Shown: positions 1,511-16,406, counted from the first letter of the stretch. The stretch: 16,406 bases of DNA from Candidatus Heimdallarchaeota archaeon (GCA_019058275.1 JAHLVW010000095.1:1-16406), one strand, 5' to 3'. Numbers and translations: made by a program. The notes: generated from the letters alone by a model not told the origin.

Positions 1511-1525
1511 AGATAATAATTATCA
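1511..1525. promoter_or_regulatory. Palindromic operator-like site resembling a Fur 7-1-7 box upstream of the M20 peptidase
   Basis: GATAAT-A-ATTATC is a perfect palindrome at 1512-1524. The - strand reads TGATAATTATTATCT, one mismatch from TGATAATnATTATCA. The AT-rich context lowers significance. Confidence 0.3.
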
Positions 1526-1551
1526 ACATTAATTAATTTATTAGGAATCAT

Positions 1552-1839
1552 TCACTTTCTAGTGAGTTCTTTTTCAGGTACAATCCCTTCTATAGGCATT
1601 TTTTTATAGGCAAGCAGGACATTTACCTATAACTTTAACAGCTTCTTGCATGTGTAATAAGTAATCTTTTGCTTCATAGAGTGAGCATTGACCTGTTTCA
1701 TCATCAAAAGAGATAGTTAATTTGCAACTGAACACTTTAGTGATTCTTTTTTACAGCCTGAACATTGTTTAGAATCAAGTTCTACGGGATTACCACAATT
1801 GAAGTAAGTATAATGTTTCTAGGTAGAATGAGTTTTCAT
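1552..1839 (-). pseudogene. Degenerate double zinc-ribbon + RING-finger (E3 ubiquitin ligase-like) gene
   Basis: Manual translation with two 1-nt frameshifts (about 1727 and about 1606-1609) gives MKTHST*KHYTYFNCGNPVELDSKQCSGCKKESLKCS(V)CKLTISFDDETGQCSLYEAKDYLLHMQEAVKVIGKCPAC(L)KKMPIEGIVPEKELTRK*. In-frame TAG at 1819-1821. The frame may extend, with further stops, to an ATG at 1962. Confidence 0.75.
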
Positions 1840-1982
1840 ATCATTTAAAAGCTTCTCAGTGTCTTTTTTATGATTAGATACTTCATTACATCACTGACAA
1901 CTATTCATTATGATGTTTTAGTCTTTGTTGTAAAAGTAAAAAACATCTCTTATTTCACTCATTTTATAAATATAATTTTTTT

Positions 1983-1998
1983 GAAAAAGTTTTTATTA
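1983..1998 (+). promoter_or_regulatory. Candidate archaeal BRE/TATA promoter of the 4-gene operon
   Basis: GAAAAAG-TTTTTATTA: a purine-rich block followed by a TATA-like box, upstream of in-frame ATGs at 2017 and 2059. Confidence 0.35.
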
Positions 1999-2058
1999 GA
2001 GAATTTAATTAGAATAATGTTAAATTTCATATTTGAAAGAACGTGGGAAGATATAGGA

Positions 2059-3531
2059 ATGGAAGAGGAAATTAGTAAATGCGATATTTTATTAATTAAT
2101 CCTCCATATCATAGAAGAATTGGGAGCGGAATAGTACCACCATTAGGTTTAGCTTATTTATGTTCATCTCTCATTAATGCAAATTTCAATCCTGAGGTTT
2201 TGGACTGTTCTCTTGTCATTCAAGATCTTTTTGAGGATTCCTTAAGAAAATTGAAAATATTTGTAAAAGAGCAAATAAAAAGTCTAAATCCTAAATATGC
2301 TATTGGTATTGGGCCATGTACAACTGCAACACTAAAAGCAATTATAGAAATCATAAATGCTTGTAATGAAGTTTGTCCTTATAAGCCCATTATTATGGGT
2401 GGACCATTAACATTAATACCACAGATAGATTGGCTGTTTTTTGATAAACTTAAGGTTTTTGCTGTTATAAAAGGAGATGGGGAATCAAGAATAGTAGAAT
2501 TACTTTCACGTATGAAACATAAACAGGAAATAAAAGGAATACAAGGAATTCAAACACAAAAGAAAGAAAATGTTGTGCCATATTTTGAAAGGAATTTAAA
2601 TAACCTACTATTTCCTACATGGGACAAATTTGTCTTGAAATCGTATAAACCTTCAATTAGAAGAGATTTATTTTACTATCCATTTGTGCCAGTGATTGGT
2701 TCAAGAGGATGTTATTTTGATTGTAGTTTTTGTTTTTCTGGCCAATGTATAAAATATAGAAAAAGGAGATTATCTAATATTATAGAAGAGATTAGGTTTC
2801 TAGTTAGTAAATATGATATTCAATCTATTATTTTCTATGATGATTGTTTGTTCATTAATAACAAAAAGATAAATCCAAAAATTGTCGAATTTTCAAATAG
2901 TATAGGAAGAATAAGTGATGAATTATTTTGGCAATTTGAAATCCGACCAGATCTTTTTTCTAAATTAGATGTTGAAACAACTAAAACCCTCTATGAAAAT
3001 GGTTGTAGACAAATAAACTTGGGAATTGAAAATGTATCCCAAAAAAATCTTGAATTCTTAAACAAAGAATATAGTGTAGATTTAGTAAAGGAAAAAAGTG
3101 ATATGATAAGAAAATATGTCAAGAAATTACGATTAACAGGAACATTTATTTTTGGTGGACCATATGAAACAGAAAATACAATAAGGAATACAATCGAATA
3201 TTCAACAAAACTTAACCTATTGTATGCTCATTTTTATCCACTAGAAATATATCCAGGAACTCCATTATATGATATATATGTTGACAATAAAAAGAACATC
3301 TTTTGGTATGAAGAAATACTTCAAAGTGATAAACCATGGGGTGAAATCATTTACGAATCAAAGGAATTACCAATAAATAAATTATTCAATTTTATAAATT
3401 TAGCTTATAAAAGCTTTTATGAAAGAAAGGATTGGCTAAATCTTGCGAAATTTCTTTTAAAAGAAAATTTTGAATCTGTTTTAGGAATAATTAATCATTG
3501 GAAGAAGAATAGATTTAATATTGAGGTATAA
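2059..3531 (+). CDS. Cobalamin (B12)-binding domain radical SAM enzyme (class B methyltransferase-like architecture)
   Basis: N-terminal B12-binding Rossmann motifs ILLINPPY, PPLGLAYL, IIMGGP, GDGE. Radical SAM motif SRGCYFDCSFC (CxxxCxxC, 2710-2733), then FYDDCLF, LGIE, FIFGGPYET, YPGTPLY. Start moved from 1870 to ATG 2059 (2017 possible) because the upstream extension is promoter-like DNA. Confidence 0.92.
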   Translation: MEEEISKCDILLINPPYHRRIGSGIVPPLGLAYLCSSLINANFNPEVLDCSLVIQDLFEDSLRKLKIFVKEQIKSLNPKYAIGIGPCTTATLKAIIEIINACNEVCPYKPIIMGGPLTLIPQIDWLFFDKLKVFAVIKGDGESRIVELLSRMKHKQEIKGIQGIQTQKKENVVPYFERNLNNLLFPTWDKFVLKSYKPSIRRDLFYYPFVPVIGSRGCYFDCSFCFSGQCIKYRKRRLSNIIEEIRFLVSKYDIQSIIFYDDCLFINNKKINPKIVEFSNSIGRISDELFWQFEIRPDLFSKLDVETTKTLYENGCRQINLGIENVSQKNLEFLNKEYSVDLVKEKSDMIRKYVKKLRLTGTFIFGGPYETENTIRNTIEYSTKLNLLYAHFYPLEIYPGTPLYDIYVDNKKNIFWYEEILQSDKPWGEIIYESKELPINKLFNFINLAYKSFYERKDWLNLAKFLLKENFESVLGIINHWKKNRFNIEV

Positions 3532-3535
3532 TTCA

Positions 3536-4870
3536 ATGAGTTTTATTTATGACAGGTTATACTCCAAAATAAAATTTCCAAAAATTATTACAAGCTTATT
3601 AGATTGTCCAGGTTTATTACGTTTAAGGGAAATAAGTATGGCTAATATACCATTTTTTAATTTTCCATCATTTACAGCTGTCACACGATATGAGCATTCT
3701 TTAGGAGTATGTCATCTAGCTAACATTGCTTCAAAATCTCTAAAACTTGATAATAAAGATTCATTAGAATTAATGATTGCTGGTTTATACCATGATATAA
3801 CAACACCCCCATTTGCACATTTATTTGAGAGCATTTTGGAAAAGAAATGGAATTTTGATCATGAGAGTTATTTTTATGATTTGATTACAGCAAGTTCAAA
3901 GGATTTAGGAAAAGAATTTACACAAATATATATGGGACGAGCTTTAAAATTAAACTACTTTGTGCAATCAAGTACAGCACGTAAAATGGGAATTGATGCT
4001 ATTCGAATAGCAGAATTAGTACTAGGTAAAAAAGAAGATTATTTATCTTCATTAATTAGTGGAGATATTGATTTAGATAATATTGACAATGTTATTCGTG
4101 CATCAAGTGCAATGGGAATTATAGGAGGTTCAGGAAAACTAGCAGAAAGACTAGCTACAGCATTTGTTATAGATAGTAAAAAACAAGTGAATTTTTCTGA
4201 AAGTTCAAGGGAATCCATAGAAAAATGGATGGAGTTGAGAGAAAAACTATATGAAATGATATTGTGCTCAGTAAGTGATTTCAGTTTACAAACTATGCTA
4301 AAAAATTGTTTAGATGAATTATTCCAATCTAATGATGAAAATTACAAATTAACTGAATTAGATTGGCGTTTAACTGAAAGAGAAGTTTTTGAAAAAATAA
4401 GAAAATATGAAAAAACATATCCAATTTATAAGAGAATGGCATTAAAGGATTTATACAACTGTTTGAATCTTGTTTTATTGAAGGGACCAAAATTAATCGA
4501 AATTATTGAAAAGGTACAAAAGGATTTAGAAGAAATTTGTACAGAAATATTTCATGTTGATACAATTATGAATTATTATGTTGATAAACGCATTAGAACT
4601 TTGAAACGACTTTTTGTTCATTTTAACAAAGTAGTTGAAAAAGATTATGAAACTTCTAAAAATGATGAAACAATGCTTTTAGGATTCTTCACTCCTGAAA
4701 GAAAAAATTATTTTATTAAAAATAACAAGAAAGTGTTCTTTTCTAAAATTCAACAAAATGATTTCTTAAGTAGAATACGAAAGATATTACCTAACAGTAT
4801 ATCGATATATAGAATTGAAATCATTCAAAAAAACTATCCAAAACTAAAAATAATAGAGGAGGTAATCTAA
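3536..4870 (+). CDS. HD-domain phosphohydrolase, SAMHD1/dNTP triphosphohydrolase-like, with divergent active site
   Basis: RLREI...TRYEHSLGV...AGLYHD (3791-3796)...PFAHLFE...DHE...DIDLDNID match the H...HD...D metal motif and layout of dNTPase-like HD proteins. ATG 3536 is preceded by SD-like GAGGT (3523-3527). Confidence 0.88.
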   Translation: MSFIYDRLYSKIKFPKIITSLLDCPGLLRLREISMANIPFFNFPSFTAVTRYEHSLGVCHLANIASKSLKLDNKDSLELMIAGLYHDITTPPFAHLFESILEKKWNFDHESYFYDLITASSKDLGKEFTQIYMGRALKLNYFVQSSTARKMGIDAIRIAELVLGKKEDYLSSLISGDIDLDNIDNVIRASSAMGIIGGSGKLAERLATAFVIDSKKQVNFSESSRESIEKWMELREKLYEMILCSVSDFSLQTMLKNCLDELFQSNDENYKLTELDWRLTEREVFEKIRKYEKTYPIYKRMALKDLYNCLNLVLLKGPKLIEIIEKVQKDLEEICTEIFHVDTIMNYYVDKRIRTLKRLFVHFNKVVEKDYETSKNDETMLLGFFTPERKNYFIKNNKKVFFSKIQQNDFLSRIRKILPNSISIYRIEIIQKNYPKLKIIEEVI

Positions 4871-4874
4871 AACA

Positions 4875-6098
4875 GTGATTTTAAACAAAATTAGACAGCT
4901 GGAAGACGTTGATTGGGATTTTCTTGATTATCGTGGTATTAATTCTATTCCAAATGATATAAATTCTATACATTGGTATCCTGCTCCATTCGTACCTCAG
5001 ATACCTTCAATATTAATTCAGACATTTACAAAAGAAGAGGATATTGTATTTGATCCATTTGCTGGTGCAGGGATTGGATTAATAGAAGCCACAAGATTAG
5101 ACAGAAAATTTATTGGAATAGATATAAATCCTTTTTCAGTTGAAATTATGATGGGGAAATTCATAGCTTTATCAGATGTAGATGAAAAATGGTATGAAAA
5201 CACAAAAAATGAATTAAATTTTGCAGTGGATAGTTTCAACTCAAAAGAAATATTCCATCCAAACAAAGATGATTTAGAGAAATGGTTTCACAAAAAAACT
5301 TTAGAAGAACTACTTATGTTGTATAAATTTGTTAAAATTGAGAAAAATAGTAATAAACAACATCTCAAAAGAGTTCTTTTAACATCAATTCTTAATAGAT
5401 GCTGCTCTCAAATAAAAAGTTTCACTCATATAACTGACAATTGCCAACCTGAAGTATTATTTGAGAAAAAGAGTCCTATTAATGCCTATACAGCACAAAT
5501 AGATAAGGTTTATAGTTCTGTAAATAACTTTAGGGAGCAATTTCACAGGAAATATAACAAAAAATGGAAAAAAATTAATATCAAAAACAAAACAAATCAA
5601 TGGGAAATAAACGGTAATTATATTTTTGAAGCAGATTCCAGAAACATTGATTTTTTAGAAAAAGAATCGGTTGATATGGTTATGACATCACCACCATATT
5701 TAGGAATCAATGACTATATTAAATCAATGAGATTAAGTTGGTTATTTTTTCCGAAATTAAATTTAAATAAAAGTTTAGAAAATGAGATTGGTGCTAGAAG
5801 AAAGCGAGGAAGAAAACATATTTATGAAGAATATGTTAATGATATGAATTTAGTTTTTAGAAATATCAATTATGTTCTTAAAAATGAAAAGATATTTTGT
5901 CTAGTTATTGGAAAAGGAAAAGGTAGGGTCAACCAAAATAGGAATGTAGTAAAAGATCTATTAGATTTATTAGAAAATACACATAACTTTGAATTATTAA
6001 AAACTTTTGAACGTAAAATCTCTTTTCGAAGAATACTAGGAATAAGTGACAATTTAGAAAATATTTTCATTTTTAGAAAAAGAGGGAATTCTAAATGA
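4875..6098 (+). CDS. SAM-dependent amino-methyltransferase, alpha-class, N4-cytosine DNA methyltransferase-like
   Basis: Motif X HWYPAPF, motif I DPFAGAG (from 5052), motif II GIDINP, a central variable region, then ADSR and motif IV TSPPY (5688-5699). GTG start preceded by GGAGGT (4858-4863). Confidence 0.88.
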   Translation: MILNKIRQLEDVDWDFLDYRGINSIPNDINSIHWYPAPFVPQIPSILIQTFTKEEDIVFDPFAGAGIGLIEATRLDRKFIGIDINPFSVEIMMGKFIALSDVDEKWYENTKNELNFAVDSFNSKEIFHPNKDDLEKWFHKKTLEELLMLYKFVKIEKNSNKQHLKRVLLTSILNRCCSQIKSFTHITDNCQPEVLFEKKSPINAYTAQIDKVYSSVNNFREQFHRKYNKKWKKINIKNKTNQWEINGNYIFEADSRNIDFLEKESVDMVMTSPPYLGINDYIKSMRLSWLFFPKLNLNKSLENEIGARRKRGRKHIYEEYVNDMNLVFRNINYVLKNEKIFCLVIGKGKGRVNQNRNVVKDLLDLLENTHNFELLKTFERKISFRRILGISDNLENIFIFRKRGNSK

Positions 6099-8509
6099 AA
6101 GTTACTAAATGGAAAGCTGCTATAATTTCCACAGGTAGAGATTTGAAATATTTGAGAAGCTCAGTTTTTTCATACTTAAAAAAGAGAAAATTTGAGGTAA
6201 TAGCATATGAAAAGACAGGATATCCAGTTGAACCATCAGTATCAGCTCACGAAGCATGTATTGTAGCACTTAAAGAATGTGATATTATTATATTATTAAT
6301 AGATAAATCATATGGTACCTTTTTTTTGGATGAAAATATTTCTATTACTGAAACTGAATATAATGAATCTGCTAAATTAGGCAAAATAATTATACCTTGT
6401 ATAAATCAAAAAGCTGATCAAGATAGAAATACAATTTTGAAAGCAATTAAACAAATCAAAGAAAAAAAAGGAATTACAGAAGATAAAGCAAAAACTCTAG
6501 TTTCTCCGCATTATGTAGATTCTTGGAATGTTATTGATTTTATTACAAATGTTTATGATGCCGATAAAGATAATTGGGTTATAAAATTTAGTACGCAAGA
6601 TGATTTACTGCCAAATTTAGAGAGTAGATTGAAGGGATTAACTAGAGCTATTTATACTAAATGCTTAGAGTCACAAGTTAAAGCCATAAAAAGACAAAAA
6701 ACTGTCACATTGTCATTATCCTTAGATGATATAATTAATAAAGGATATTTTATAGAACCTGAATATGAGGTGCAAAGTGGTGTTGAAAAAGGTGGTTTGT
6801 TGCAAGATTGTAATATTGGAAAAAGTAAACAACATATTATGCTCATTGGAAAACCTGGATTGGGAAAGAGTACATTATTGTCAAAATCATTTATTGAGAA
6901 TGCTGAACAATGTTTGAATGACAAATCTACTGAAATTCCAATATATATTTCATTAAGAGGAAGGGGAACATCATATCATTTTGATTATAATAAATTTAAT
7001 AATGAATATTTCAAATTATATATTGGGAAAGAGATTTATCCCTTATTAGATGAATCAAAAATTACTCGGTTATTCTATATAGATGGATTTGATGAAATTT
7101 CAGAAATACCTTCCTCTTTAGATAGAGACTTGATAAATTCTTCATTATTTTTCGCAGAACCTTTTGTATTGTGTATAAGGACAAGATTTGCGGAAAAAGT
7201 TGTTAAGAAACTTAGTATAGATGATAAATGTGATTTAATTATCAAGCTTTTACCTTGGCACAAAGAGAAAGCTTGGAATTATATAGAAGAATACTGTAGA
7301 ATTCGAAATAAAGAAAAATTATATGAAAAGATCTATGATTCTTATTTTGATAATGATGAATTAAGAGATATTTTTGAAAGTCCATTATTCATAATGATGT
7401 TTTTAATGCTAATTGAAGAACCAAGTATAAAATTACCATTAGATAAAATTAATATAGTTTTTCTTTATAGCGAGTTCATAAATCAATGGATAATTAGAGA
7501 GATTATTAGGGCAGGAGATGACGAATTAGAAAGCATTAAACGCGATATTTTGGATGCTTTGAAATTCACTGCTTGGTATTTTTATAAAAGTCGCTTTGAA
7601 TCAGAAATTCATTTTGTTAATAAAGAAAAAATTTCTGAATATTTGAGCAAAATTGATTCGAATTTACCTAGTGTAATTTCCAAACAGGCTTTTACCTCAC
7701 TTCTAGATATAAAACCTTATACAAATGAAATAAATGGGTTTATTCATGAACAATTTATGGAATATTTAATTGCAGAAAAATTCATTGAGTGTAGTTATAC
7801 TAAAGATTATCCATTTAAGGAATATTTGGGATATGAAATTCGGTGGGAAATTAATAGATTAATAAAATCTATTTGGAAAATAAAAAGTTTAGAATATTTG
7901 AGGATTATACTAGATAATTTGTGGTCTTTTTATGAGGAAATTGTCCATAGTAATGAGAAAAGTAATTTAGCAATTAGAAACCATATTATGTACTATATAG
8001 GAAGATTACCTATCAAAGAAGCTAAGAGAAAATTATTAATAGCTGATGATATTGAGAAAGATGTTTTTGTGAAACTTTCTATAGCATTTGGACTTATAAA
8101 GCTGTCTGATTATAAAAAGGAGGATGAATTTTATACTTTACTAAAAAGTGATGATTTATTTGATAAAGCAAATAGGGGATATCATTTAGTATATTATAGA
8201 GATTGGAATATTAAAAATGAACAACCACCTTATTTAGATACAGGTCAACATAAATGGGATGCAACATTTCAAGCACTAAGAAATCATTTGCTTAGCAAAG
8301 AACCACGTCACCTAACTTTAAGAAGAGTAGAATATTTTACACTAAAAAGATTTATTGAAGTAAGAAAGAAGAGTGAACCCTTGAGTAAGGAAGATCTGAA
8401 ATTGTTTGAAAATGCAATTACGGATATTGAAAATAAAGATTTTAGAGATAAAGCTTATGCAGAATTTAAAAAGTTGAAAAAAGTTTGGAAGAAATATCTT
8501 AGTAAATAA
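6095..8509 (+). CDS. DUF4062 (TIR/nucleoside-deoxyribosyltransferase-like) - NACHT/STAND NTPase - helical repeat protein (NLR-like)
   Basis: N-terminus IISTGRDL...CDIIILLIDKSYG...SITETEY fits the DUF4062 pattern. Walker A GKPGLGKST (6848-6874), Walker B FYIDGFDE, sensor IRTR, SPLF (GxP-equivalent) and winged-helix GFIHEQFMEYLIA. HEAT-like C-terminus (YYIGRL...FVKLSIAFGL...NRGYHLVYYRD). ATGA overlap with the methyltransferase stop. Confidence 0.87.
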   Translation: MKVTKWKAAIISTGRDLKYLRSSVFSYLKKRKFEVIAYEKTGYPVEPSVSAHEACIVALKECDIIILLIDKSYGTFFLDENISITETEYNESAKLGKIIIPCINQKADQDRNTILKAIKQIKEKKGITEDKAKTLVSPHYVDSWNVIDFITNVYDADKDNWVIKFSTQDDLLPNLESRLKGLTRAIYTKCLESQVKAIKRQKTVTLSLSLDDIINKGYFIEPEYEVQSGVEKGGLLQDCNIGKSKQHIMLIGKPGLGKSTLLSKSFIENAEQCLNDKSTEIPIYISLRGRGTSYHFDYNKFNNEYFKLYIGKEIYPLLDESKITRLFYIDGFDEISEIPSSLDRDLINSSLFFAEPFVLCIRTRFAEKVVKKLSIDDKCDLIIKLLPWHKEKAWNYIEEYCRIRNKEKLYEKIYDSYFDNDELRDIFESPLFIMMFLMLIEEPSIKLPLDKINIVFLYSEFINQWIIREIIRAGDDELESIKRDILDALKFTAWYFYKSRFESEIHFVNKEKISEYLSKIDSNLPSVISKQAFTSLLDIKPYTNEINGFIHEQFMEYLIAEKFIECSYTKDYPFKEYLGYEIRWEINRLIKSIWKIKSLEYLRIILDNLWSFYEEIVHSNEKSNLAIRNHIMYYIGRLPIKEAKRKLLIADDIEKDVFVKLSIAFGLIKLSDYKKEDEFYTLLKSDDLFDKANRGYHLVYYRDWNIKNEQPPYLDTGQHKWDATFQALRNHLLSKEPRHLTLRRVEYFTLKRFIEVRKKSEPLSKEDLKLFENAITDIENKDFRDKAYAEFKKLKKVWKKYLSK

Positions 8510-8561
8510 ATCGCTTAATAAAAATATAAACAAAAATCACTAAAATTATGTTTTTTAGAAC

Positions 8562-8587
8562 AAAAATTATATTTTATGACTTTATAA
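8562..8587 (+). promoter_or_regulatory. Candidate BRE/TATA region for the 8622 gene
   Basis: AAAAATTATATTT (8562-8574) and TTTATAA (8581-8587) lie upstream of a purine-rich leader and ATG 8622. Confidence 0.3.
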
Positions 8588-8621
8588 CAAACACAGCGCG
8601 TATGAAAGAAGGGAAGAAAGA

Positions 8622-9569
8622 ATGATATTACCGAAATATGTTGCCGTACAAGCATACCTAGAGGCTACAGGAACAGCCTTTGCAGAACTAAGGTATATAG
8701 AACCATTGATAGAAAAAATACTGGAAATGAAAGAAATAACTGCTGAGTATGGCAGAGAAATACTAGGACACAAAAGTGATGTGGCAAAAACGATCTTTAA
8801 CCTATTCCAGCACATAGGCATCATAAAGAGAAGACTGGATCCCGAAGCAAATGTCGAGTACTTCTCATTGACGAATTATGGAAGGTTCGTGTTAGAGAAC
8901 AAGAAGAAAGGACAATCAATCATTCAACCGCTAACCTCGTTCTTCCTTACTTGGTTGCCATTCAAGATCTTTCTAAAGTATCTGTTGCGTAACCCCGGGG
9001 CAGAACTAAACGAAGTGAGGACAAACCTAGGATCGCAGGTAGTAAAACATACAACAGATATCAAGAATTTGATTCAATCGGACATTATTCGAAGAGGAGC
9101 ATACATTCCCTTCAATGAGATGGTTATTGGGAAGGTGCTATCAAACGTTGGGGAATACCTAGGGTTGGTCAATTGTGATAAGTCCAGTGGACCCTACTAC
9201 TTGAGCCCGTTAGGAAAGTATGTTACTAATTCGATCGATTTTCAGAATTTCCAATTTAAGAATTTGGATCCGAAACTAAATCCCTCTCATCTAGCACTGA
9301 TGGATTTTGTTGAAAGAGGGTTGAAGAATATCATAGTCTTCGCAAACACAAACGAGATTGAACATATGAAGAAGTTCTACCAACACTATGCTGAGAAGAT
9401 GAAAATAAAGCATGTCGTACGAATTGTTTACAATAAGAGTAATTTCAATGCAGTCATTTCCTTGGATAGTGCTTTCTGGAGTTTTACCTATAGATTCTCA
9501 AATATTACATACGACCAAATAAAAGTGCTCGAGTTCAACTCCAAAGTAATGGATTATCTTGAAGTATGA
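8622..9569 (+). CDS. Hypothetical protein with probable tandem winged helix-turn-helix domains
   Basis: 315-aa ORF with GC content like the M20 gene. Two similar helix-G-hydrophobic-wing signatures: LFQHIGII...YFSLTNYGRFV and VGEYLGLV...YYLSPLGKYV. C-terminal domain not recognised. Confidence 0.6.
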   Translation: MILPKYVAVQAYLEATGTAFAELRYIEPLIEKILEMKEITAEYGREILGHKSDVAKTIFNLFQHIGIIKRRLDPEANVEYFSLTNYGRFVLENKKKGQSIIQPLTSFFLTWLPFKIFLKYLLRNPGAELNEVRTNLGSQVVKHTTDIKNLIQSDIIRRGAYIPFNEMVIGKVLSNVGEYLGLVNCDKSSGPYYLSPLGKYVTNSIDFQNFQFKNLDPKLNPSHLALMDFVERGLKNIIVFANTNEIEHMKKFYQHYAEKMKIKHVVRIVYNKSNFNAVISLDSAFWSFTYRFSNITYDQIKVLEFNSKVMDYLEV

Positions 9570-9597: not shown

Positions 9598-11250
9598 TCA
9601 ATTTTCCTCTTTTAGTATTCCATCCCGATTTATTTTACCATCAACAAGCTCGATAACTCGCATTCCTTTTTGAATTAGATTTATATCATGTGTTGAAAGC
9701 AGTATTGTTTTCTTTTGATCTCGATGTAGTTGGAATAAATTCTGTATGACAAGTTTTGCTAGGTCGGAATCTAAATTCGCAGTTGGTTCATCAAAAACAA
9801 ATATCTTTGGAGATTTATAAAATGATACAGCAAGGGAAGCTCTTTGCAATTCCCCAGCAGAAATCTCTGATGGAAATGAATTTTGACGATGAAGAATGTG
9901 AAAGAGAGTTAAGAGTTTGGAAAAATTGTCTTTATTTAATTGAGTTTTCTTTTGTTTAAAAGCAAAAACATCTTTTAAATAGAGATTTTCTTCGACAGTC
10001 AAAAATGGATGAAGATTACCATGTTGCATAACAATACCAAAATGATTCCTTCTGAAATATGCTTTTTCATTATCTGAGAATTGAGTAAAATGTTCATTCA
10101 AAAGAAATATTTCACCTTTGGATTCTCCTTCAAGACCTGTGAGGACTTTAAGCAAAGTACTTTTTCCTGAACCACTAGGACCGACAATGAAGATGAATTC
10201 ACCCGAATGCACACTTAAATTGATGTCCGATAAAGCTTGTACATCTCCTCCTAATGGCCTGTAGGTTTTTGAAAGATTCTTAGTTTCAATAATAATATCT
10301 TGTTCTTTATGATAGTCATTTTGTAAATTTTCTAGAATGAGTTCTCTTCTAAGTTTCGTTTTTTCTTCTAACGTGACTTTCTCAGGGACGATGTTATTTG
10401 GGTGTTTTAAGGTAACTTGACTTTCTTCATTCATTTCAAGCTGAACATTGTCCTCAAATTTCAGTGTTTTGTAAATTAACTCGGGGATTCGTATGCTTTT
10501 TGATGAATCAATATGCCTCTTAAATTTCAATGGAAATTCAGTTTGGTCTGTTTTATCTTCTTTCTCCAATATCGCTGAGACACGTCCATCTCTAATGATA
10601 TAGGTTTTATCAACACCTTCAAGAAACCGTAAATCATGGGTAACAACAATGACAGTAGTGTGGTATTTCTCGGAAACTTTGGATAGCATATCTTTAACTT
10701 TCTTAGTATTTTCACCATCTAGTTGTCCAGTAGGCTCATCACATAATAGAACTGGAGCTTTCTTAGCAATTGCACAAGCAATAGCTACTCGAATCATCTC
10801 CCCTCCTGCCAAAGTCTTAGCTAATCTTGAAGTGAGATGATCAATGCCTAAATCATTCATGATTCGCTTGTTTCTTTGCTCAATTGTTGGAGTAAGATCC
10901 TTCTTATCTAAAGTACTATACAATGAGAGATTTTCCTTAACTTTTACATTTAGAAATAAATTCCTTTCAGGGAATTGATCCACTAGACTGATTTTTTTCA
11001 AACGATAAGAAGACAAATCCCTAATAGATAGTTTTTCAAGATTAATTCCATCAACCTTCACTGTTCCACTAGAAATAGTCTCTTGCCCTGCTAGAATATT
11101 GATAAGAGTAGTCTTCCCAGAACCACTGGGACCAATAAAAGTAACCAATTCACCTTTTTTCACTTGAAAATCACAACCTCTTAGTGCTGGAATTCTCAAT
11201 TGTCTCTGTTCATCTTCATAGATTTTTATCAAGTCAAAGCATTCAATCAT
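9598..11250 (-). CDS. ABC transporter ATP-binding protein with two LolD/MacB-type ATPase domains and an AbrB-like linker
   Basis: Domain 1: GPSGSGKTT, LAGGE, LLCDEPTGQLD, VTHD. Domain 2: GPSGSGKST, ISAGE, FVFDEPTANLD, STHD. Linker HIDSSKSIRIPELIYKTL. SD GAGGAG at 11258-11263. Confidence 0.93.
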   Translation of the reverse strand: MIECFDLIKIYEDEQRQLRIPALRGCDFQVKKGELVTFIGPSGSGKTTLINILAGQETISSGTVKVDGINLEKLSIRDLSSYRLKKISLVDQFPERNLFLNVKVKENLSLYSTLDKKDLTPTIEQRNKRIMNDLGIDHLTSRLAKTLAGGEMIRVAIACAIAKKAPVLLCDEPTGQLDGENTKKVKDMLSKVSEKYHTTVIVVTHDLRFLEGVDKTYIIRDGRVSAILEKEDKTDQTEFPLKFKRHIDSSKSIRIPELIYKTLKFEDNVQLEMNEESQVTLKHPNNIVPEKVTLEEKTKLRRELILENLQNDYHKEQDIIIETKNLSKTYRPLGGDVQALSDINLSVHSGEFIFIVGPSGSGKSTLLKVLTGLEGESKGEIFLLNEHFTQFSDNEKAYFRRNHFGIVMQHGNLHPFLTVEENLYLKDVFAFKQKKTQLNKDNFSKLLTLFHILHRQNSFPSEISAGELQRASLAVSFYKSPKIFVFDEPTANLDSDLAKLVIQNLFQLHRDQKKTILLSTHDINLIQKGMRVIELVDGKINRDGILKEEN

Positions 11251-11254
11251 TTTT

Positions 11255-14107
11255 CTACTCCTCTTTTATTGGTTTGTAATTTCTAATTTGTGGGAATAAT
11301 CCTATGAAATAAGTTAGCAATAGTGGCAATCCTAAAGGAAAGATTAAGAAAATATATAGCCAATTTCCACCCCATGAAAAGTTTGCATAAGGGACTGGAA
11401 AGTTAAACAGCATTGGCATGAGGATTGCTAATAAACCCAAACCCACACCTATTGAAATGAGTATTGGTACAAACGATGCTACAATGAATTCAAACAAGAA
11501 ACTCAACAGAAGCTGGCTTTTAGCAGCTCCAACTCGAATACTTGACTCAATGATTTTTATTCGTTGCAGATAAACATTCCTTGCTAAAAAGTAGCAGAAC
11601 ATACAAAGTATCATTATTGAAAGAATAATGTTAAGAATAGCGATATTTTGTTTCCAGAATATGAATGGGAAATTAATCTGTTCAGCAAAATGCTCTTTAT
11701 CAAATGCATTTAGATTTGTTTCTTGATAGATTTGTTCTTTGGTTGTAGTGAGGTTAGCATTATCTTCTATTTTTAGCAAGAGATAGGTTTCCTCTTCTAC
11801 TGGTTCAGTCATAGCAGTGCTTTTAATATGGGTTAAAGTATTGAAATTTGTTACTAGATTATATTGAATGATATTTTTCTGAAACATTTTACCATTATCA
11901 GGCAAACTTAGAAGAGGAAATGATTTGAAACTTGCTATATAATTTAGTGGAAACCGCTCATAATATGTAGATGTGAAATCATCATTGTAGAGGATTTCAT
12001 CTTTATCATAACCATTATTCTTTGAATATGTGTAGTCCATTAGATATGTGTTATCTACCTCTAAAGCAATTATAGCTTCAAGTGAGCAATATAATTCATC
12101 TATGAAATCATTTGAACTGATGATTTGAATAAATTCAGTAATATTATTAATAGCTAATATCGACACTTGAATTCTAGTTAATAGTGGGGGATCAATTAGC
12201 AATTCAAAATGACACTTACTAACTTCTGCTGAATATTCAATCTCATCAATAGCCATGATACTTTCTCTAATGGTTTGATTTGCAACCCAATCAGAGATAA
12301 CAAGATCTGAATAACCAGACCGTAATTCTGATTCATATTCGAAATGTCTTGGATAAGATTTATTTAAAATTAATCCTGGTGTAACTGCTAAGGCAAAAAT
12401 CATCAAACTAAGTACGATGTTACGAAATGGCATATAGCTCATTGAAAAATTCTTCAGCGAGAAAGTAAACAAATTCTTTTTCAAAACCCAAATTTTCTTC
12501 CCAATAAAGCTCCATAATTTTACAATTAGTTTGGATATCAAAAGGAAGATGATTATTCCTAACACTAAGAAGCCAAAATAGATTAGACTAGTAAATAAAA
12601 TAGTTGTAGAATAAATTGTAACAGGGGACCGATATCCTATATAGCTTAGAAATAAACCAAGAAATCCTATACTTATACAAAGTGAGCTGGGTAGTAACAA
12701 TATAACTTCAATGAAAGTAAATATCTTCCTTATTCTCTTTGTTCTTTGTTTTTTGAATAATTCAGATTTAGAGCGATTAAGCATCTTTAATAGTTTGTTA
12801 TCAAATAAGTACCCACCAATATAGAGAGCCAACATTAGAATCACAGTTGGAATAATAAATAGTGACTCACCCAAACCAGCAAAGATATTCATACCTATAA
12901 CTGATTTCCAAGTAATTGACAGAATTACTAGACCAATAATAATCCCTAACAACATTCCCATGAATATACTACAAAAAACAAAAAGGCTCTTTTCAAGCAG
13001 TATAACTTTTCGAATTCTTTTATCCTCTAAACCTTGATTTTTTAAGAGAAGTATTGATTGTTCAAAGACTCTTTTATCAATATTAGATATATCAAATACT
13101 AGAAGTAATAGTAAGAAAATAATTGGCAAGCTAAGCAACAAAATACGATTCGTTTCTTGAAGCCAATATTCATGATATGAATTCAATCTTGTAGAAAGAT
13201 CAAGAAATGGGCTAAAGCGATTCCAAGGACCATGAAAATCCGAAAACTCTTCAAAATAGTGAATGAGCTCTTTTGATTCAAGAGCTAAATCATTATAATT
13301 AATGTCGATTGCAATACCCTTTATACTACTAACAATCGGAAAATTATTGATAAACTCAAAGAAGAACTCCTGCTTTGAAATAAATTTTCCTTTCAATTTA
13401 AATTCATCAAATTCCTCGTGGTCAATATAGTCTTCCCAATTAGGGATATCAGCAGAATAACCCGCTTGATGGAAAAGAACATCTAAATTTGAGACAATCC
13501 CAACAATTGTTACTTGCTGATTTGTTATTGGATACATAGTACCAGCTGTATTTAGATTGACAGTATCATTTATCTCGAATATAGGCGATGAATCATATTC
13601 AGTATAATATAATACCTCACTCATATTGGCTGGCATTCGTCCTGAAATGAGATTGCCCAGAATTAGTTGATACATTACATCAGAGAATGTATAATAACCA
13701 TATGCATTATCGAGAATTGGATTATACCGATTTTCATATACTTGAAAAGCATATAACCAGGAATAGTTGTCTGTCATCAAATTTGGAGCAATACTGTTTA
13801 GAGTGCTTTTCATAGAATTTAGTAATTCAGTAATATCAGAGAGAGAATAATCAGGTTCTCCGGAAGTAACTATTGATATATAAACACTAATTGATGCATC
13901 ATCATACCAATCATTTCTCTGATGATATTCTTGAAAAGCTTGCTCCCTATTATTATACCATACAACTGAAAAGGTGGTTAAAAGTATAAAGATTAAAGAT
14001 GCAGTTAGAATAGTAAGGAAGAAACGTTTTCTATTTGTTCTTAGAAAAGTTCTAAAAAGAATAAGAAAACCATTTTTTCTCAAGCTTGTTATTTTCTTTA
14101 GTACCAT
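11255..14107 (-). CDS. FtsX/MacB-like ABC transporter permease (two-repeat, multi-pass membrane protein)
   Basis: 950 aa with alternating TM bundles and large extracytoplasmic domains. GRMP...EV and TIVGI MacB-type motifs, FtsX-like LLKNQGL..KRI and IRVGAAKSQLL..FLFE. SD GGAGG at 14116-14120; adjacent to the ATPase. Confidence 0.85.
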   Translation of the reverse strand: MVLKKITSLRKNGFLILFRTFLRTNRKRFFLTILTASLIFILLTTFSVVWYNNREQAFQEYHQRNDWYDDASISVYISIVTSGEPDYSLSDITELLNSMKSTLNSIAPNLMTDNYSWLYAFQVYENRYNPILDNAYGYYTFSDVMYQLILGNLISGRMPANMSEVLYYTEYDSSPIFEINDTVNLNTAGTMYPITNQQVTIVGIVSNLDVLFHQAGYSADIPNWEDYIDHEEFDEFKLKGKFISKQEFFFEFINNFPIVSSIKGIAIDINYNDLALESKELIHYFEEFSDFHGPWNRFSPFLDLSTRLNSYHEYWLQETNRILLLSLPIIFLLLLLVFDISNIDKRVFEQSILLLKNQGLEDKRIRKVILLEKSLFVFCSIFMGMLLGIIIGLVILSITWKSVIGMNIFAGLGESLFIIPTVILMLALYIGGYLFDNKLLKMLNRSKSELFKKQRTKRIRKIFTFIEVILLLPSSLCISIGFLGLFLSYIGYRSPVTIYSTTILFTSLIYFGFLVLGIIIFLLISKLIVKLWSFIGKKIWVLKKNLFTFSLKNFSMSYMPFRNIVLSLMIFALAVTPGLILNKSYPRHFEYESELRSGYSDLVISDWVANQTIRESIMAIDEIEYSAEVSKCHFELLIDPPLLTRIQVSILAINNITEFIQIISSNDFIDELYCSLEAIIALEVDNTYLMDYTYSKNNGYDKDEILYNDDFTSTYYERFPLNYIASFKSFPLLSLPDNGKMFQKNIIQYNLVTNFNTLTHIKSTAMTEPVEEETYLLLKIEDNANLTTTKEQIYQETNLNAFDKEHFAEQINFPFIFWKQNIAILNIILSIMILCMFCYFLARNVYLQRIKIIESSIRVGAAKSQLLLSFLFEFIVASFVPILISIGVGLGLLAILMPMLFNFPVPYANFSWGGNWLYIFLIFPLGLPLLLTYFIGLFPQIRNYKPIKEE

Positions 14108-14123
14108 TTAACTTTCCTCCTTT

Positions 14124-16406
14124 TCATACTTCTTTCACCAATTTGTACTTGTTAATTCTAGGAATTATTCCCGATAGCCATCCTATTGTTAGCGAACTCA
14201 CAACCATAATTATTGCCAATACAAATAGACCTGTGAATTTGAGACTAAATGATGAATAGGTTTGATTATTACTTGTTAGAAATATTCCGATTAGTTTTCC
14301 AAAAAAGATTCCACAAATCGAACAAATAACAAGTGGAACTATTGCAACAATACTAATTTCAAGAATAAATCCCCTTAGAATTTGTTTTTTTGAGATTCCA
14401 ATTGTATACTCAATTTCAATTGCTTTTGTCCTAATCTTCAGAATATTTGTAATTGTAATGTAACTGTAAAGTATTATTATAAGAAAAGAAACTATTGAGC
14501 TAAATACTAGAAATATTATGGTGAAATTAATACTTTCTAAATCATTCTGATTAGTGATTGAGTTAATATCCAAAACTTCTACATTCGGAGATATTTGATT
14601 AATTTGTTGTTTGATGGAAGTAACGATCTCACTTGAATTTGTTTTAATTAACATAGAATAAGTCTTTGTAATAGATGGTAAAACTAAAGAATCTTCTAAC
14701 GCAGAGCTTGTTTCCAAATTCATAACTAATGAGAATTGGACAGTACTTGATATGAGAGGATTTCTATTAGGTTGTGGTAAAAGTGGGAAGAAATTGAAAC
14801 TGTTTATAAAATTTAAAGAAATGCTTTCTGTTACATCCCCAAATAACTCATTTGTAAATTCCAATCCATCATTATAACCATTTTTTACAGCATAATCTCT
14901 ACACATTAGAAATGATAGATTCTGCTCTAAACTTAAAATATCATCTGTTGTAAATCCATATTCTAAAGTTGATAAATCGATAGTTTCAAGAAGTTCAGTC
15001 TGATTATGAACACACAGAATGGGTACAGTATATTGCTTTTCTCCAAAAAAAGTATCTCTTTCAAGAGTTAGAGTTGAAGTCGTTAGTAAAGTTGTTTTTT
15101 CTACTCCAGAGATATTCAGGACTTCGATTTGCGATGGAAGGAAATTAGAACTCCTAGATATGATAGCTAAATCAGCCCCACCAGTGGATAAGGTGTTTTC
15201 AATAGCTAAATGATTGGTTATAGAGGGCTTTAGAATAATTCCTGGAATGAGACCAATCCCAATTACTAATATAAAAGAAATTATCGTTTTGTAATAACTA
15301 TTGTTAAACTTGATATTCTTTAAAGAAAAGATAAAGAGATTCTTCTTCTTGCTCCAAGATTGCTTACTCAACCAAGAAAATAGTAAAACAATTAACCGTG
15401 AAATCAGGAAAAATACTACTAGAGTAATCATTACAGCTCCAAAGAAAACCAACCCCCAAGCAATATCATGTAAGAATGCATATGAAGGTGGAGCTTCAGA
15501 TGTAAATCTCAAAACAAAAATACCTATACTTGTAGCTGTTACACCAGGAATACTCAGCATAATTTCTGGTATTGAGAAGAATTTTTGTAACCAACTTCTC
15601 TCATGATATGCAAAAGGAATTGATTTTATTGAAGGAATTCTTCTAACTTTTCTTAATTCAATAACTAATCCTAGTATAAGATAAATAATCGAATAGGTTA
15701 ATATCACAAATAAAAACAACGGTGTTGTAATAAAGGAAAAATATTCTTGAAACGAACTAGTACCAAGAAGGTAAGATAAAGGCAAGCCAATTACTACACT
15801 AAATAGATTGCCAATAATCAAGCTAAAAAAGAAAATACCTACCACTTCTATAATTACAATTCGAGATAGGTTTTTCTTACTTATCCCTAGAGTTTGTAAT
15901 AGTCCTAAAGATGCCAGATATTCCTTTTGATTGTAGTTAAAACTTTCATAACAAAGGAAAGAAAGCAAAATAATCAATGGAAAAGTTAGGGATAGTAAAA
16001 TGATTGTTTTCTGAATCCAATTGTTTCGAAAAGTGGTTAATGCATCATATAAATCTAAACCAATTGTATAAGTTTCTTGAGGATCTGAAGCTAATTGCTC
16101 AAGTGAGGTCAGAGTCTTTTGATATTGAGATAAGTATCTGCTTATTTTGCTACCCTTTATTGCTTCATTCACGTAATCAAAATCAACAATAACAGCTCTT
16201 CCAGCAGACAAAGAAGGATATGAATTAGCTATTTCAGCTAGAAACAAGCTAGTCGTAAAGAATTTTTCAAGGGGAGTATAACAATAACGATAGGATTTGA
16301 TATTCGATGTCCAATCTAAAATATCAACTGAAAGCCCATTCAATAGAAAGGCATTATCGAGATTATTGAGGATGCCAACAATAGTGAAATTCATTTTGAA
16401 GGCAAA
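14124..16406 (-). CDS. FtsX/MacB-like ABC transporter permease, paralog of the downstream gene (5' end outside the window)
   Basis: The frame stays open to the window edge (FAFK precedes M at 16394). FtsX-like LLQTLGISKKNL...E and YTIGISKKQIL..FILE motifs. Colinear similarity to the 11255-14107 protein. Confidence 0.85.
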   Translation of the reverse strand, partial: FAFKMNFTIVGILNNLDNAFLLNGLSVDILDWTSNIKSYRYCYTPLEKFFTTSLFLAEIANSYPSLSAGRAVIVDFDYVNEAIKGSKISRYLSQYQKTLTSLEQLASDPQETYTIGLDLYDALTTFRNNWIQKTIILLSLTFPLIILLSFLCYESFNYNQKEYLASLGLLQTLGISKKNLSRIVIIEVVGIFFFSLIIGNLFSVVIGLPLSYLLGTSSFQEYFSFITTPLFLFVILTYSIIYLILGLVIELRKVRRIPSIKSIPFAYHERSWLQKFFSIPEIMLSIPGVTATSIGIFVLRFTSEAPPSYAFLHDIAWGLVFFGAVMITLVVFFLISRLIVLLFSWLSKQSWSKKKNLFIFSLKNIKFNNSYYKTIISFILVIGIGLIPGIILKPSITNHLAIENTLSTGGADLAIISRSSNFLPSQIEVLNISGVEKTTLLTTSTLTLERDTFFGEKQYTVPILCVHNQTELLETIDLSTLEYGFTTDDILSLEQNLSFLMCRDYAVKNGYNDGLEFTNELFGDVTESISLNFINSFNFFPLLPQPNRNPLISSTVQFSLVMNLETSSALEDSLVLPSITKTYSMLIKTNSSEIVTSIKQQINQISPNVEVLDINSITNQNDLESINFTIIFLVFSSIVSFLIIILYSYITITNILKIRTKAIEIEYTIGISKKQILRGFILEISIVAIVPLVICSICGIFFGKLIGIFLTSNNQTYSSFSLKFTGLFVLAIIMVVSSLTIGWLSGIIPRINKYKLVKEV

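Follow-up and report, generated by a model that had tools for sequence, protein, structure and literature searches.

A four-gene cassette from a Candidatus Heimdallarchaeota archaeon, encoding a radical SAM enzyme, an HD phosphohydrolase, a methyltransferase and an NLR-like STAND protein, probably links the suicide of virus-infected cells to an unusual nucleotide that its enzymes make or clear, and this rare, mobile unit is apparently undescribed. It lies at positions 2059-8509 of a stretch of 16,406 nucleotides (GCA_019058275.1, JAHLVW010000095.1:1-16406; hereafter, the window), which is the entire contig C90 of a 4.1-Mb, 118-contig metagenome-assembled genome (MAG). The MAG encodes the large subunit of PolD and is thus archaeal; McrA was sought in the same MAG and was not found. 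An earlier note on this DNA had proposed these genes as a candidate antiviral system. We consider it likely that they form an antiviral cassette combining an NLR-type NADase with a nucleotide-enzyme module.

The genes are all on the plus strand, in the order radical SAM (2059-3531; 490 amino acids (aa), or 504 aa from the gene caller's alternative start at 2017), HD phosphohydrolase (3536-4870; 444 aa), methyltransferase (4875-6098; GTG start, 407 aa) and NLR-like STAND gene (6095-8509; 804 aa). As the earlier note had read them, they are translationally coupled, with 4-nt gaps at the radical SAM/HD and HD/methyltransferase junctions and an ATGA overlap between the methyltransferase and NLR genes, and the open reading frame (ORF) calls agree. 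The Shine-Dalgarno motifs GAGGT, GGAGGT and GAGGG sit within the final codons of each preceding gene. The very low GC content that had been pointed out was also recovered, at 27.1% in the cassette versus 40.4% in the left flank and 32.1% in the right flank. An AT-rich, TATA-like stretch near 1961-1976, upstream of the radical SAM gene, is a putative promoter.

To judge from the homologues retrieved, chance cannot account for the conservation of the four genes together. Each protein has orthologues that align over its full length (33-54% identity) and are encoded in the same order elsewhere, and about 50 loci from anaerobic archaea and bacteria carry the same four genes in the same order. This agrees with the proposal of one coupled cassette, and the unit recurs across taxa among mobile and defence genes. 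A search from the radical SAM protein found this order in an archaeal genome, a Candidatus Methanoperedens genome and a Kineothrix chromosome. When about 185,000 species genomes were scanned with an HD profile, 14 complete and 2 contig-truncated cassettes were obtained, from Methanothrix, Syntrophaceae, Acetobacterium, Lachnospiraceae, Oscillospiraceae, Acutalibacteraceae, other Clostridia, Treponemataceae and Nitrospiraceae. An NLR-anchored scan of metagenomes returned 31 further loci with all four genes, and the cassette hosts include archaea as well as Firmicutes of human and animal guts. The pairwise identity matrices of the four genes across 16 loci are correlated at 0.90-0.97, which shows their joint inheritance and no more, as kin are not independent. 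The NLR family is small yet diverse, with 87 clusters (50% identity) at E<=1e-30 among 1.84 billion representatives. One metagenome copy has about 1.5 kb inserted between the methyltransferase and NLR genes (L120:5326-6821).

The island that holds the cassette is horizontally mobile and self-contained. The NLR gene was not found in 120 related genomes, 10 of them from the same genus, and the HD orthologue was not found in 40 relatives. A sister-strain contig of the same MAG (C62) lacks the island; there the order is the M20 peptidase gene (85% nucleotide identity to the window), PAS/histidine-kinase genes and then the post-cassette sequence of the window (92% identity). Because C62 has flanking sequence on both sides, the low-GC island could be bracketed to about 1517-8558. 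Similarity to C62 ceases at 1516, so the left island end and the upstream control region fall at 1517-2058 (plus strand), and it restarts at 8559 with 92% identity, placing the right island end at 8510-8558 (plus strand). The comparison covers 36-1516 and 8559-8721 of the window. The PAS/histidine-kinase block that stands in the cassette's place on C62 lies between two copies of the 8559-8721 segment (76% and 92% identity). The second strain is present in the MAG as C62 (L175) and C43 (L176), whose partial M20 peptidase copies are 82-85% identical to the window at the nucleotide level. Within the window, no direct repeats flanking the island were detected, and no tRNA genes were found.

Mobile and defence genes also surround the cassette in other hosts. 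Large serine recombinases were the commonest family (7 members) among 131 non-redundant flanking ORFs of cassette loci, and strong matches in this set included BrxC, LmuB, a CBASS cyclase and effector, a type IIG restriction-modification enzyme, RmrA and capP; no flanking gene was conserved across the loci. The Candidatus Methanoperedens cassette adjoins Cas1, RadC and a Prok-E2/JAB set, and that of Kineothrix is within an element with a relaxase, ParB and IS21. The HD tree conflicts with taxonomy throughout. With tblastn, the NLR had no match among plasmids and the HD protein none among phage genomes; a variant-B HD match was found on a Rhizobium etli plasmid, amid genes annotated only as hypothetical.

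The NLR-like protein carries the N-terminal effector that had been assigned to it. Residues 12-91 match DUF4062 (PF13271, 3.7e-12, 46.7 bits versus a cut-off of 24.7), and in the NIR/DUF4062 domain (about residues 7-200) E88 is invariant and E86 mostly conserved among the orthologues, at a helix start. According to three 2026 preprints (bioRxiv 10.64898/2026.09.04.749371, 2026.05.01.722283 and 2026.06.25.731849), DUF4062, renamed NIR, has been shown experimentally to be a TIR-like NADase that serves Avs2 variants, Vulcan, Vesta, Swarozyc and Evangelion as their effector, with E97, E108, E98 or E103 as the catalytic glutamate. DUF4062 is no longer a domain of unknown function, and by analogy with these proteins the predicted effector activity of the NLR can be refined to that of a NIR/DUF4062 NADase.

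The NACHT domain of the same protein (1.4e-6, 28.7 bits versus a cut-off of 26.7) has its Walker A motif at G252-T260 and its Walker B motif at D330-E334, and G252, K258, T260 and D330/D333/E334 are invariant in 17 orthologues. The C-terminal region (about residues 560-804) is helical with high pLDDT and contains a strongly conserved NRGYHLxYY motif (residues 693-701); its HEAT-repeat reading is an atlas lead at 0.90. The whole NLR model has a pLDDT of 86 and a pTM of 0.81, and its top folds are NOD2, NLRC4 and NLRP3 (E 1e-9).

The first gene encodes a class-B-like radical SAM enzyme, for which the use of cobalamin is predicted. The protein matches Radical_SAM (PF04055, 5.8e-15, 56.3 bits), and its CxxxCxxC cysteines (C218/C222/C225) are invariant among orthologues. 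The earlier designation as a B12-radical SAM enzyme therefore stands for the radical SAM core and less well for the cofactor domain, as B12-binding (PF02310) reaches 18.3 bits against a cut-off of 32.1 in this copy; the domain is present in many orthologues. The search for homologues yielded 263 at E<=1e-10. A profile built from 17 sequences and compared with the PDB matched AprD4 (7e-18, core only), OxsB (6.7e-13, B12 domain and core, with the longest coverage) and TsrM (1.9e-12), and also TokK and CysS. The nearest NCBIfam families are class-B enzymes, far under every cut-off. The protein also weakly matches one component of a PADLOC candidate system (PDC-M51A, 1.1e-14), and the other three cassette proteins have no PDC-M51 match.

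For the second gene, the description as a SAMHD1-like HD enzyme is corroborated by metal-ligand motifs, signature and PDB profile matches alike. The protein matches Pfam HD (5.2e-9), its metal-ligand motifs H54, H86-D87 and D181 are invariant in the ortholog alignment, and it carries the RxEHSLGV / DxDxxD signature of SAMHD1/dGTPase-type triphosphohydrolases. The HD profile matched 2hek (1.4e-14) and SAMHD1 (3e-11), and at E<=0.01 the PDB matches were SAMHD1-family chains only, OxsA not being among them. At the positions that we take to be H210 and Y315 of SAMHD1, the protein has T90 and N185. Its PADLOC dGTPase match is weak, and with 20-22 bits it does not reach the NCBIfam dGTPase cut-offs (152-393).

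The methyltransferase matches N6_N4_Mtase (PF01555, 2.1e-17, 64.3 bits versus a cut-off of 26.7) and has FxGxG followed by SPPY. In the ortholog alignment motif I comes first, then a helical insert of about 170 aa, then an invariant TSPPY, and the insert holds a motif that is invariant across archaeal and bacterial orthologues. Its assignment as an amino-methyltransferase with SPPY holds; the narrower N4C label derives from the SPPY motif alone, and an N4C-type DNA methylase is possible. Matches to N4C methylases among PDB sequences are limited to the motif I region. The structural model (pLDDT 88.9) most resembles two tRNA m2G methylases, Trm11 and Trm14 (Z 17.7-18.8), and Dam, and the Foldseek matches have TM scores of 0.3-0.46, too weak to settle the substrate.

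Comparison with variant loci indicates that the constant partnership is a NACHT/C-terminal part with a radical SAM enzyme and a nucleotide hydrolase, predicted to be HD, an HD fused to the radical SAM enzyme, or NUDIX, rather than the set of four genes. The radical SAM and hydrolase genes are adjacent everywhere. Three loci (L133-135) have a radical SAM-NUDIX-NLR arrangement without HD or methyltransferase, beside a Thoeris system and a serine recombinase. In three others (L157, L161 and L162), divergent NLRs with other N-termini (EAD7 in L157) are followed by HD and radical SAM genes, without a methyltransferase; in L162 the HD, B12-binding and radical SAM parts form one 915-aa ORF beside a divergent STAND protein (L162:7782-10526). 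Many NLR relatives swap the N-terminal domain, and the NACHT/C-terminal family is almost never seen without a radical SAM enzyme and a hydrolase even when the effector domain has been swapped. Because these relatives keep the NACHT/C-terminal part together with HD and radical SAM, the enzymes appear to go with the sensing half of the NLR and not with NAD+ chemistry. A scheme in which the enzymes process ADP-ribose made by the NADase was rejected, as HD and radical SAM persist in relatives whose N-terminal effector is a different one. Archaeal cassettes with the radical SAM gene add a fifth gene, a (d)CMP-kinase-like one, whose product resembles the kinase domain of the anti-phage dCTP deaminase (7.7e-17 and 1.4e-11, PADLOC/NCBIfam NF041025 models).

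Several of these and other loci have further peculiarities. In L135:5075-11588, the radical SAM-NUDIX-NLR genes are directly followed by ThsA-Macro, ThsB-TIR and TIR_2 and preceded by a large serine recombinase. The HD-B12-radical SAM arrangement of L161:2177-5005 is apparently split by a frame break. In a gut-metagenome contig, one 1311-aa ORF joins the methyltransferase and the NLR (L143:5498-9430); this fusion may be an assembly error or a decaying copy, because the same contig has a frameshifted radical SAM gene. In a Symploca genome (L013:1417-6571), the protein that precedes a radical SAM homologue (36% identical) is of the NB-ARC-WD40 STAND type and not a NIR-NACHT one, and a PIN toxin pair lies downstream.

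The HD-methyltransferase pair is also the core of a far larger undescribed family, with about 60 further loci in >15 phyla (L032-L095, e.g. L045:5182-11001, L051:5078-9893 and L054:5141-9335). In 38 loci the partners are a small protein, an FAD-oxidoreductase-like protein and a guanylate-kinase-dCTP-deaminase-like fusion; in 9 loci they are a DUF7411-like protein (weak match), an uncharacterised protein and an AAA_18 kinase; and in 5 loci the partner is a PurM-like protein. On the HD tree, the loci of each partner type fall into a single group. The pair is fused into single proteins of 814-822 aa in four unrelated lineages (L048:6959-9406, L049:2505-4946, L053:5955-8420 and L068:6929-9382). 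Against PADLOC, the proteins of this family matched generic methylase models only.

No named defence system has the composition of the cassette, as had been expected: there was no system-level match in PADLOC v2, no NCBIfam 2026 family was above its cut-off, and none was found in the papers searched. We found no published description of the gene combination, and the eLife 2020 paper on conflict systems does not contain it. The texts of the three NIR preprints mention no operon with radical SAM, HD or methyltransferase genes, although a passing depiction in their figures or supplements is possible. As far as these texts describe them, the NIR-NLRs (PsAvs2, Vulcan, Vesta, Swarozyc and Evangelion) share with the present protein an N-terminal DUF4062 with a conserved glutamate on a STAND NTPase, C-terminal helical repeats, and an expected outcome of NAD+ depletion and abortive infection. 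They differ in being one- or two-gene systems, whereas the NACHT/C-terminal family here is tied to enzyme partners. Vesta is described as a NIR effector with a phosphatase that prevents self-activation, and with escape mutants in a host-DNA nuclease.

Four further precedents resemble parts of the cassette. KpAvs2-Avap1-Avap2 is a validated NLR-like operon whose radical SAM accessory Avap1 is needed against some phages, in a role left unexplained (Bechon et al. 2024, PMC11564622). It is alike as an NLR-like defence with a radical SAM partner gene, and unlike in that Avap1 is not of the B12 class, HD and methyltransferase are absent and the effector is a nuclease; the Avap2 (DUF6375) domain is not among the Pfam matches of the cassette. 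OxsB and OxsA, a cobalamin radical SAM enzyme and an HD phosphohydrolase, jointly act on dAMP, dADP and dATP and so yield oxetanocin A, an antiviral nucleoside (Bridwell-Rabb 2016/2017, as cited in PMC7074753). The likeness is that radical SAM and HD genes are adjacent here and fused in L162; the differences are that the HD protein here is a 444-aa SAMHD1-family enzyme and not an OxsA homologue, that the likeness of the radical SAM enzyme is at the class-B level only, and that a methyltransferase and an NLR accompany the pair. Metis combines a NAD+-depleting effector with a phosphatase safety catch (MisA/MisB), and a type III with its own methylase has been predicted (bioRxiv 10.1101/2025.11.05.686725). 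The cassette shares this logic, including the optional methylase, but MisA belongs to the calcineurin-like phosphoesterases and MisB to the HAD phosphatases, Metis senses a monophosphate derived from Dam-methylated DNA, and neither the MisA (PF00149) nor the MisB (PF13419) family is among the Pfam matches of the four proteins. Finally, anti-phage depleters of deoxynucleoside triphosphates (dNTPs; dGTPase and kinase-dCTP deaminase) and prokaryotic viperins with kinases share the HD triphosphohydrolase family and a kinase gene, whereas they are single-gene systems and all scores are far below the family cut-offs. In the light of these comparisons, the cassette is best described as a probable NLR-based abortive-infection system with accessory enzymes, whose chemistry may well prove to be new.

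The gene content of the cassette, its conservation and mobility, the domain identities and the fusions were observed here, and the NADase activity of NIR domains and the chemistry of OxsB/OxsA come from the literature. From this material we infer the defence function, the substrate, the product and the link between product and NLR. The overall best explanation, which we hold to be somewhat on the probable side, is a two-module antiviral cassette in which a modified-nucleotide product acts on the sensor side of the NLR. During infection, the radical SAM enzyme, with or without the methyltransferase, would turn a (deoxy)nucleotide into an unusual modified nucleotide. It would work with the SAMHD1-family HD enzyme as OxsB does with OxsA, the methyltransferase being attached to the HD enzyme. 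The modified nucleotide may then act on the NACHT and C-terminal domains, and the triggered NLR would oligomerise via NACHT and switch on the N-terminal NIR/DUF4062 domain, leading to NAD+ hydrolysis and abortive infection. In healthy cells, the HD enzyme (NUDIX in the variant) would hydrolyse the phosphorylated product and keep its level low, as a safety catch.

A modified nucleotide is suggested as the currency because radical SAM and HD are encoded side by side and, in L162, as a fusion, because NUDIX can substitute for HD, and because nucleotide kinases accompany these genes. Action of the product on the NLR is preferred because the enzyme module tracks the sensor half of the NLR and because Metis and Vesta provide the precedent of a phosphatase safety catch. 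This ligand step, taken by itself, is tentative and falls short of an even chance. Prediction of a complex between the radical SAM enzyme and NLR residues 405-804 gave a score of 0.00, which is no evidence either way. Several observations count against the favoured explanation. The HD-methyltransferase core occurs in many systems without an NLR and without a radical SAM enzyme, and the enzymes can therefore presumably work without the NLR. The B12-binding domain is sub-threshold in this copy, AprD4 outscores OxsB in the profile comparison, and the homology of the HD enzyme to OxsA goes no further than the HD superfamily. The C-terminus of the NLR is HEAT-like, and in Vulcan and Avs proteins such repeats sense viral proteins and not small molecules. 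In addition, the methyltransferase matches type II methylase models of PADLOC (MTase_II) over its full length.

Some of these points speak for a chemical defence beside an independent NLR, which we judge unlikely in absolute terms and nearly as likely as the ligand mechanism. Here the radical SAM, HD and methyltransferase enzymes would block viral polymerases by way of an antiviral nucleotide or nucleoside analogue that they make, comparable to oxetanocin or the viperin products, and the NLR would separately sense a viral protein or guard the enzymes and kill the cell as a second layer. OxsB/OxsA is a precedent, radical SAM partners occur in validated systems (Avap1 of KpAvs2, and Ophion, in which a radical SAM enzyme is paired with a phosphoesterase), and the fifth-gene kinase resembles the viperin-kinase and dCTP-deaminase kinase domains. 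A HEAT-like C-terminus also points to a protein as the sensed molecule, and the NLR-less contexts of the HD-methyltransferase core are as this alternative would have it. However, it leaves unexplained why the NACHT/C-terminal family almost always has a radical SAM enzyme and a hydrolase, and it would seem self-defeating to place a triphosphohydrolase beside a triphosphate poison, unless the product is the nucleoside.

An improbable alternative is that of a system similar to the predicted Metis type III, as in the first of two models in the earlier note (model A). The methyltransferase, perhaps with the radical SAM enzyme, would put a private mark on host DNA, viral nucleases would free the marked nucleotide to activate the NLR NADase, and the HD enzyme would clear the basal level. 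DNA marking is possible because the methyltransferase has full-length matches to type II DNA methylase models, together with SPPY; the Metis authors both predict systems with their own DNA-modifying enzyme and show the phosphatase safety catch; Vesta pairs a NIR effector with a phosphatase and has its escape mutants in a host-DNA nuclease; and there is the lone methyltransferase-NLR fusion ORF of L143. As stated, model A is nevertheless not supported, since the methyltransferase-free relatives (L133-135, L157, L161 and L162) keep the radical SAM enzyme, the hydrolase and the NLR. SAMHD1-like and NUDIX enzymes use tri- and diphosphates, whereas nucleases release monophosphates, and the nearest folds of the methyltransferase catalytic domain are tRNA m2G methylases. 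The L143 fusion is possibly an error, given the frameshift on its contig, and none of the B12 radical SAM enzymes known to us has DNA as its substrate. The second model of the note (model B), in which the nucleotide is made directly, seems to fit the sequence comparisons better, in view of the methyltransferase-free relatives, the types of hydrolase, the fusions of HD to radical SAM or to methyltransferase, and the co-travelling nucleotide kinases.

Much less probable still is a restriction-modification-like core, in which HD would be a nuclease or a DNA-triggered dNTPase, the methyltransferase would protect or recognise self DNA, and the radical SAM enzyme and NLR would be add-ons. The conserved HD-methyltransferase core, fused in four lineages in the manner of type IIG enzymes, is compatible with such an arrangement, as are the resemblance of the methyltransferase to type II methylases, the role of HD-family dGTPases as anti-phage dNTP depleters and the weak dGTPase match. 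Yet the HD protein has the SAMHD1 dNTPase signature and not that of a Cas3-type nuclease HD, no nuclease family was detected in the four proteins by Pfam, PADLOC or the comparison of the HD profile with the PDB, and the partners (kinases, dCTP-deaminase-like, PurM-like and NUDIX proteins) point to nucleotide pools. A restriction-modification enzyme is expected to have a variable specificity domain, whereas the insert of the methyltransferase holds a motif that is invariant in archaeal and bacterial orthologues. That the cassette is a non-immune, mobile secondary-metabolite or nucleotide-salvage operon with the STAND ATPase as its regulator is hardly credible, as the OxsAB-type genes that recommend it (natural-product genes) are joined to a NIR NADase effector domain in an NLR architecture, placed among defence-island and mobile-element genes, and distributed with extreme patchiness and horizontal transfer.

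Outside the island, the flanks of the window are ordinary genes: the M20 peptidase, an orphan ORF, an ABC ATPase and two FtsX-type permeases. The orphan ORF (8622-9569, plus strand; 315 aa), immediately to the right of the island, matches nothing in Pfam, PADLOC or NCBIfam and is probably host DNA, because the other cassette loci are without it. Positions 9598-16394 on the minus strand encode a double-ABC ATPase and then two very large FtsX-type permeases (950 and 756 aa), and the PADLOC mad3/mad8 matches in this region look like generic ABC similarity. Among sequencing runs, the stretch is listed in no RNA run and in only two DNA runs, both from sediment metagenomes and possibly its source.

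NLR-type receptors are common to bacterial, archaeal, plant and animal immunity, and their tie to small-molecule chemistry is largely open. The cassette is a compact, conserved case, in which an NLR with a proven type of NADase effector is genetically locked to a radical SAM/phosphohydrolase pair of the oxetanocin-making kind, and it could reveal a new antiviral nucleotide or immune messenger, a new cobalamin-type radical SAM reaction and a new SAMHD1-like role. The fullest version, in which the radical SAM-HD module, with or without the methyltransferase, makes a previously undescribed modified nucleotide that gates the NLR, is a doubtful but serious possibility. If true, the cassette would provide the first case of an NLR under the control of a nucleotide made by enzymes, and the first of a B12-type radical SAM enzyme with an immune role. 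Nucleotide-based immune systems built on the HD-methyltransferase core would then form a superfamily in >15 phyla of bacteria and archaea, and the wider family is a pool of further candidate systems.

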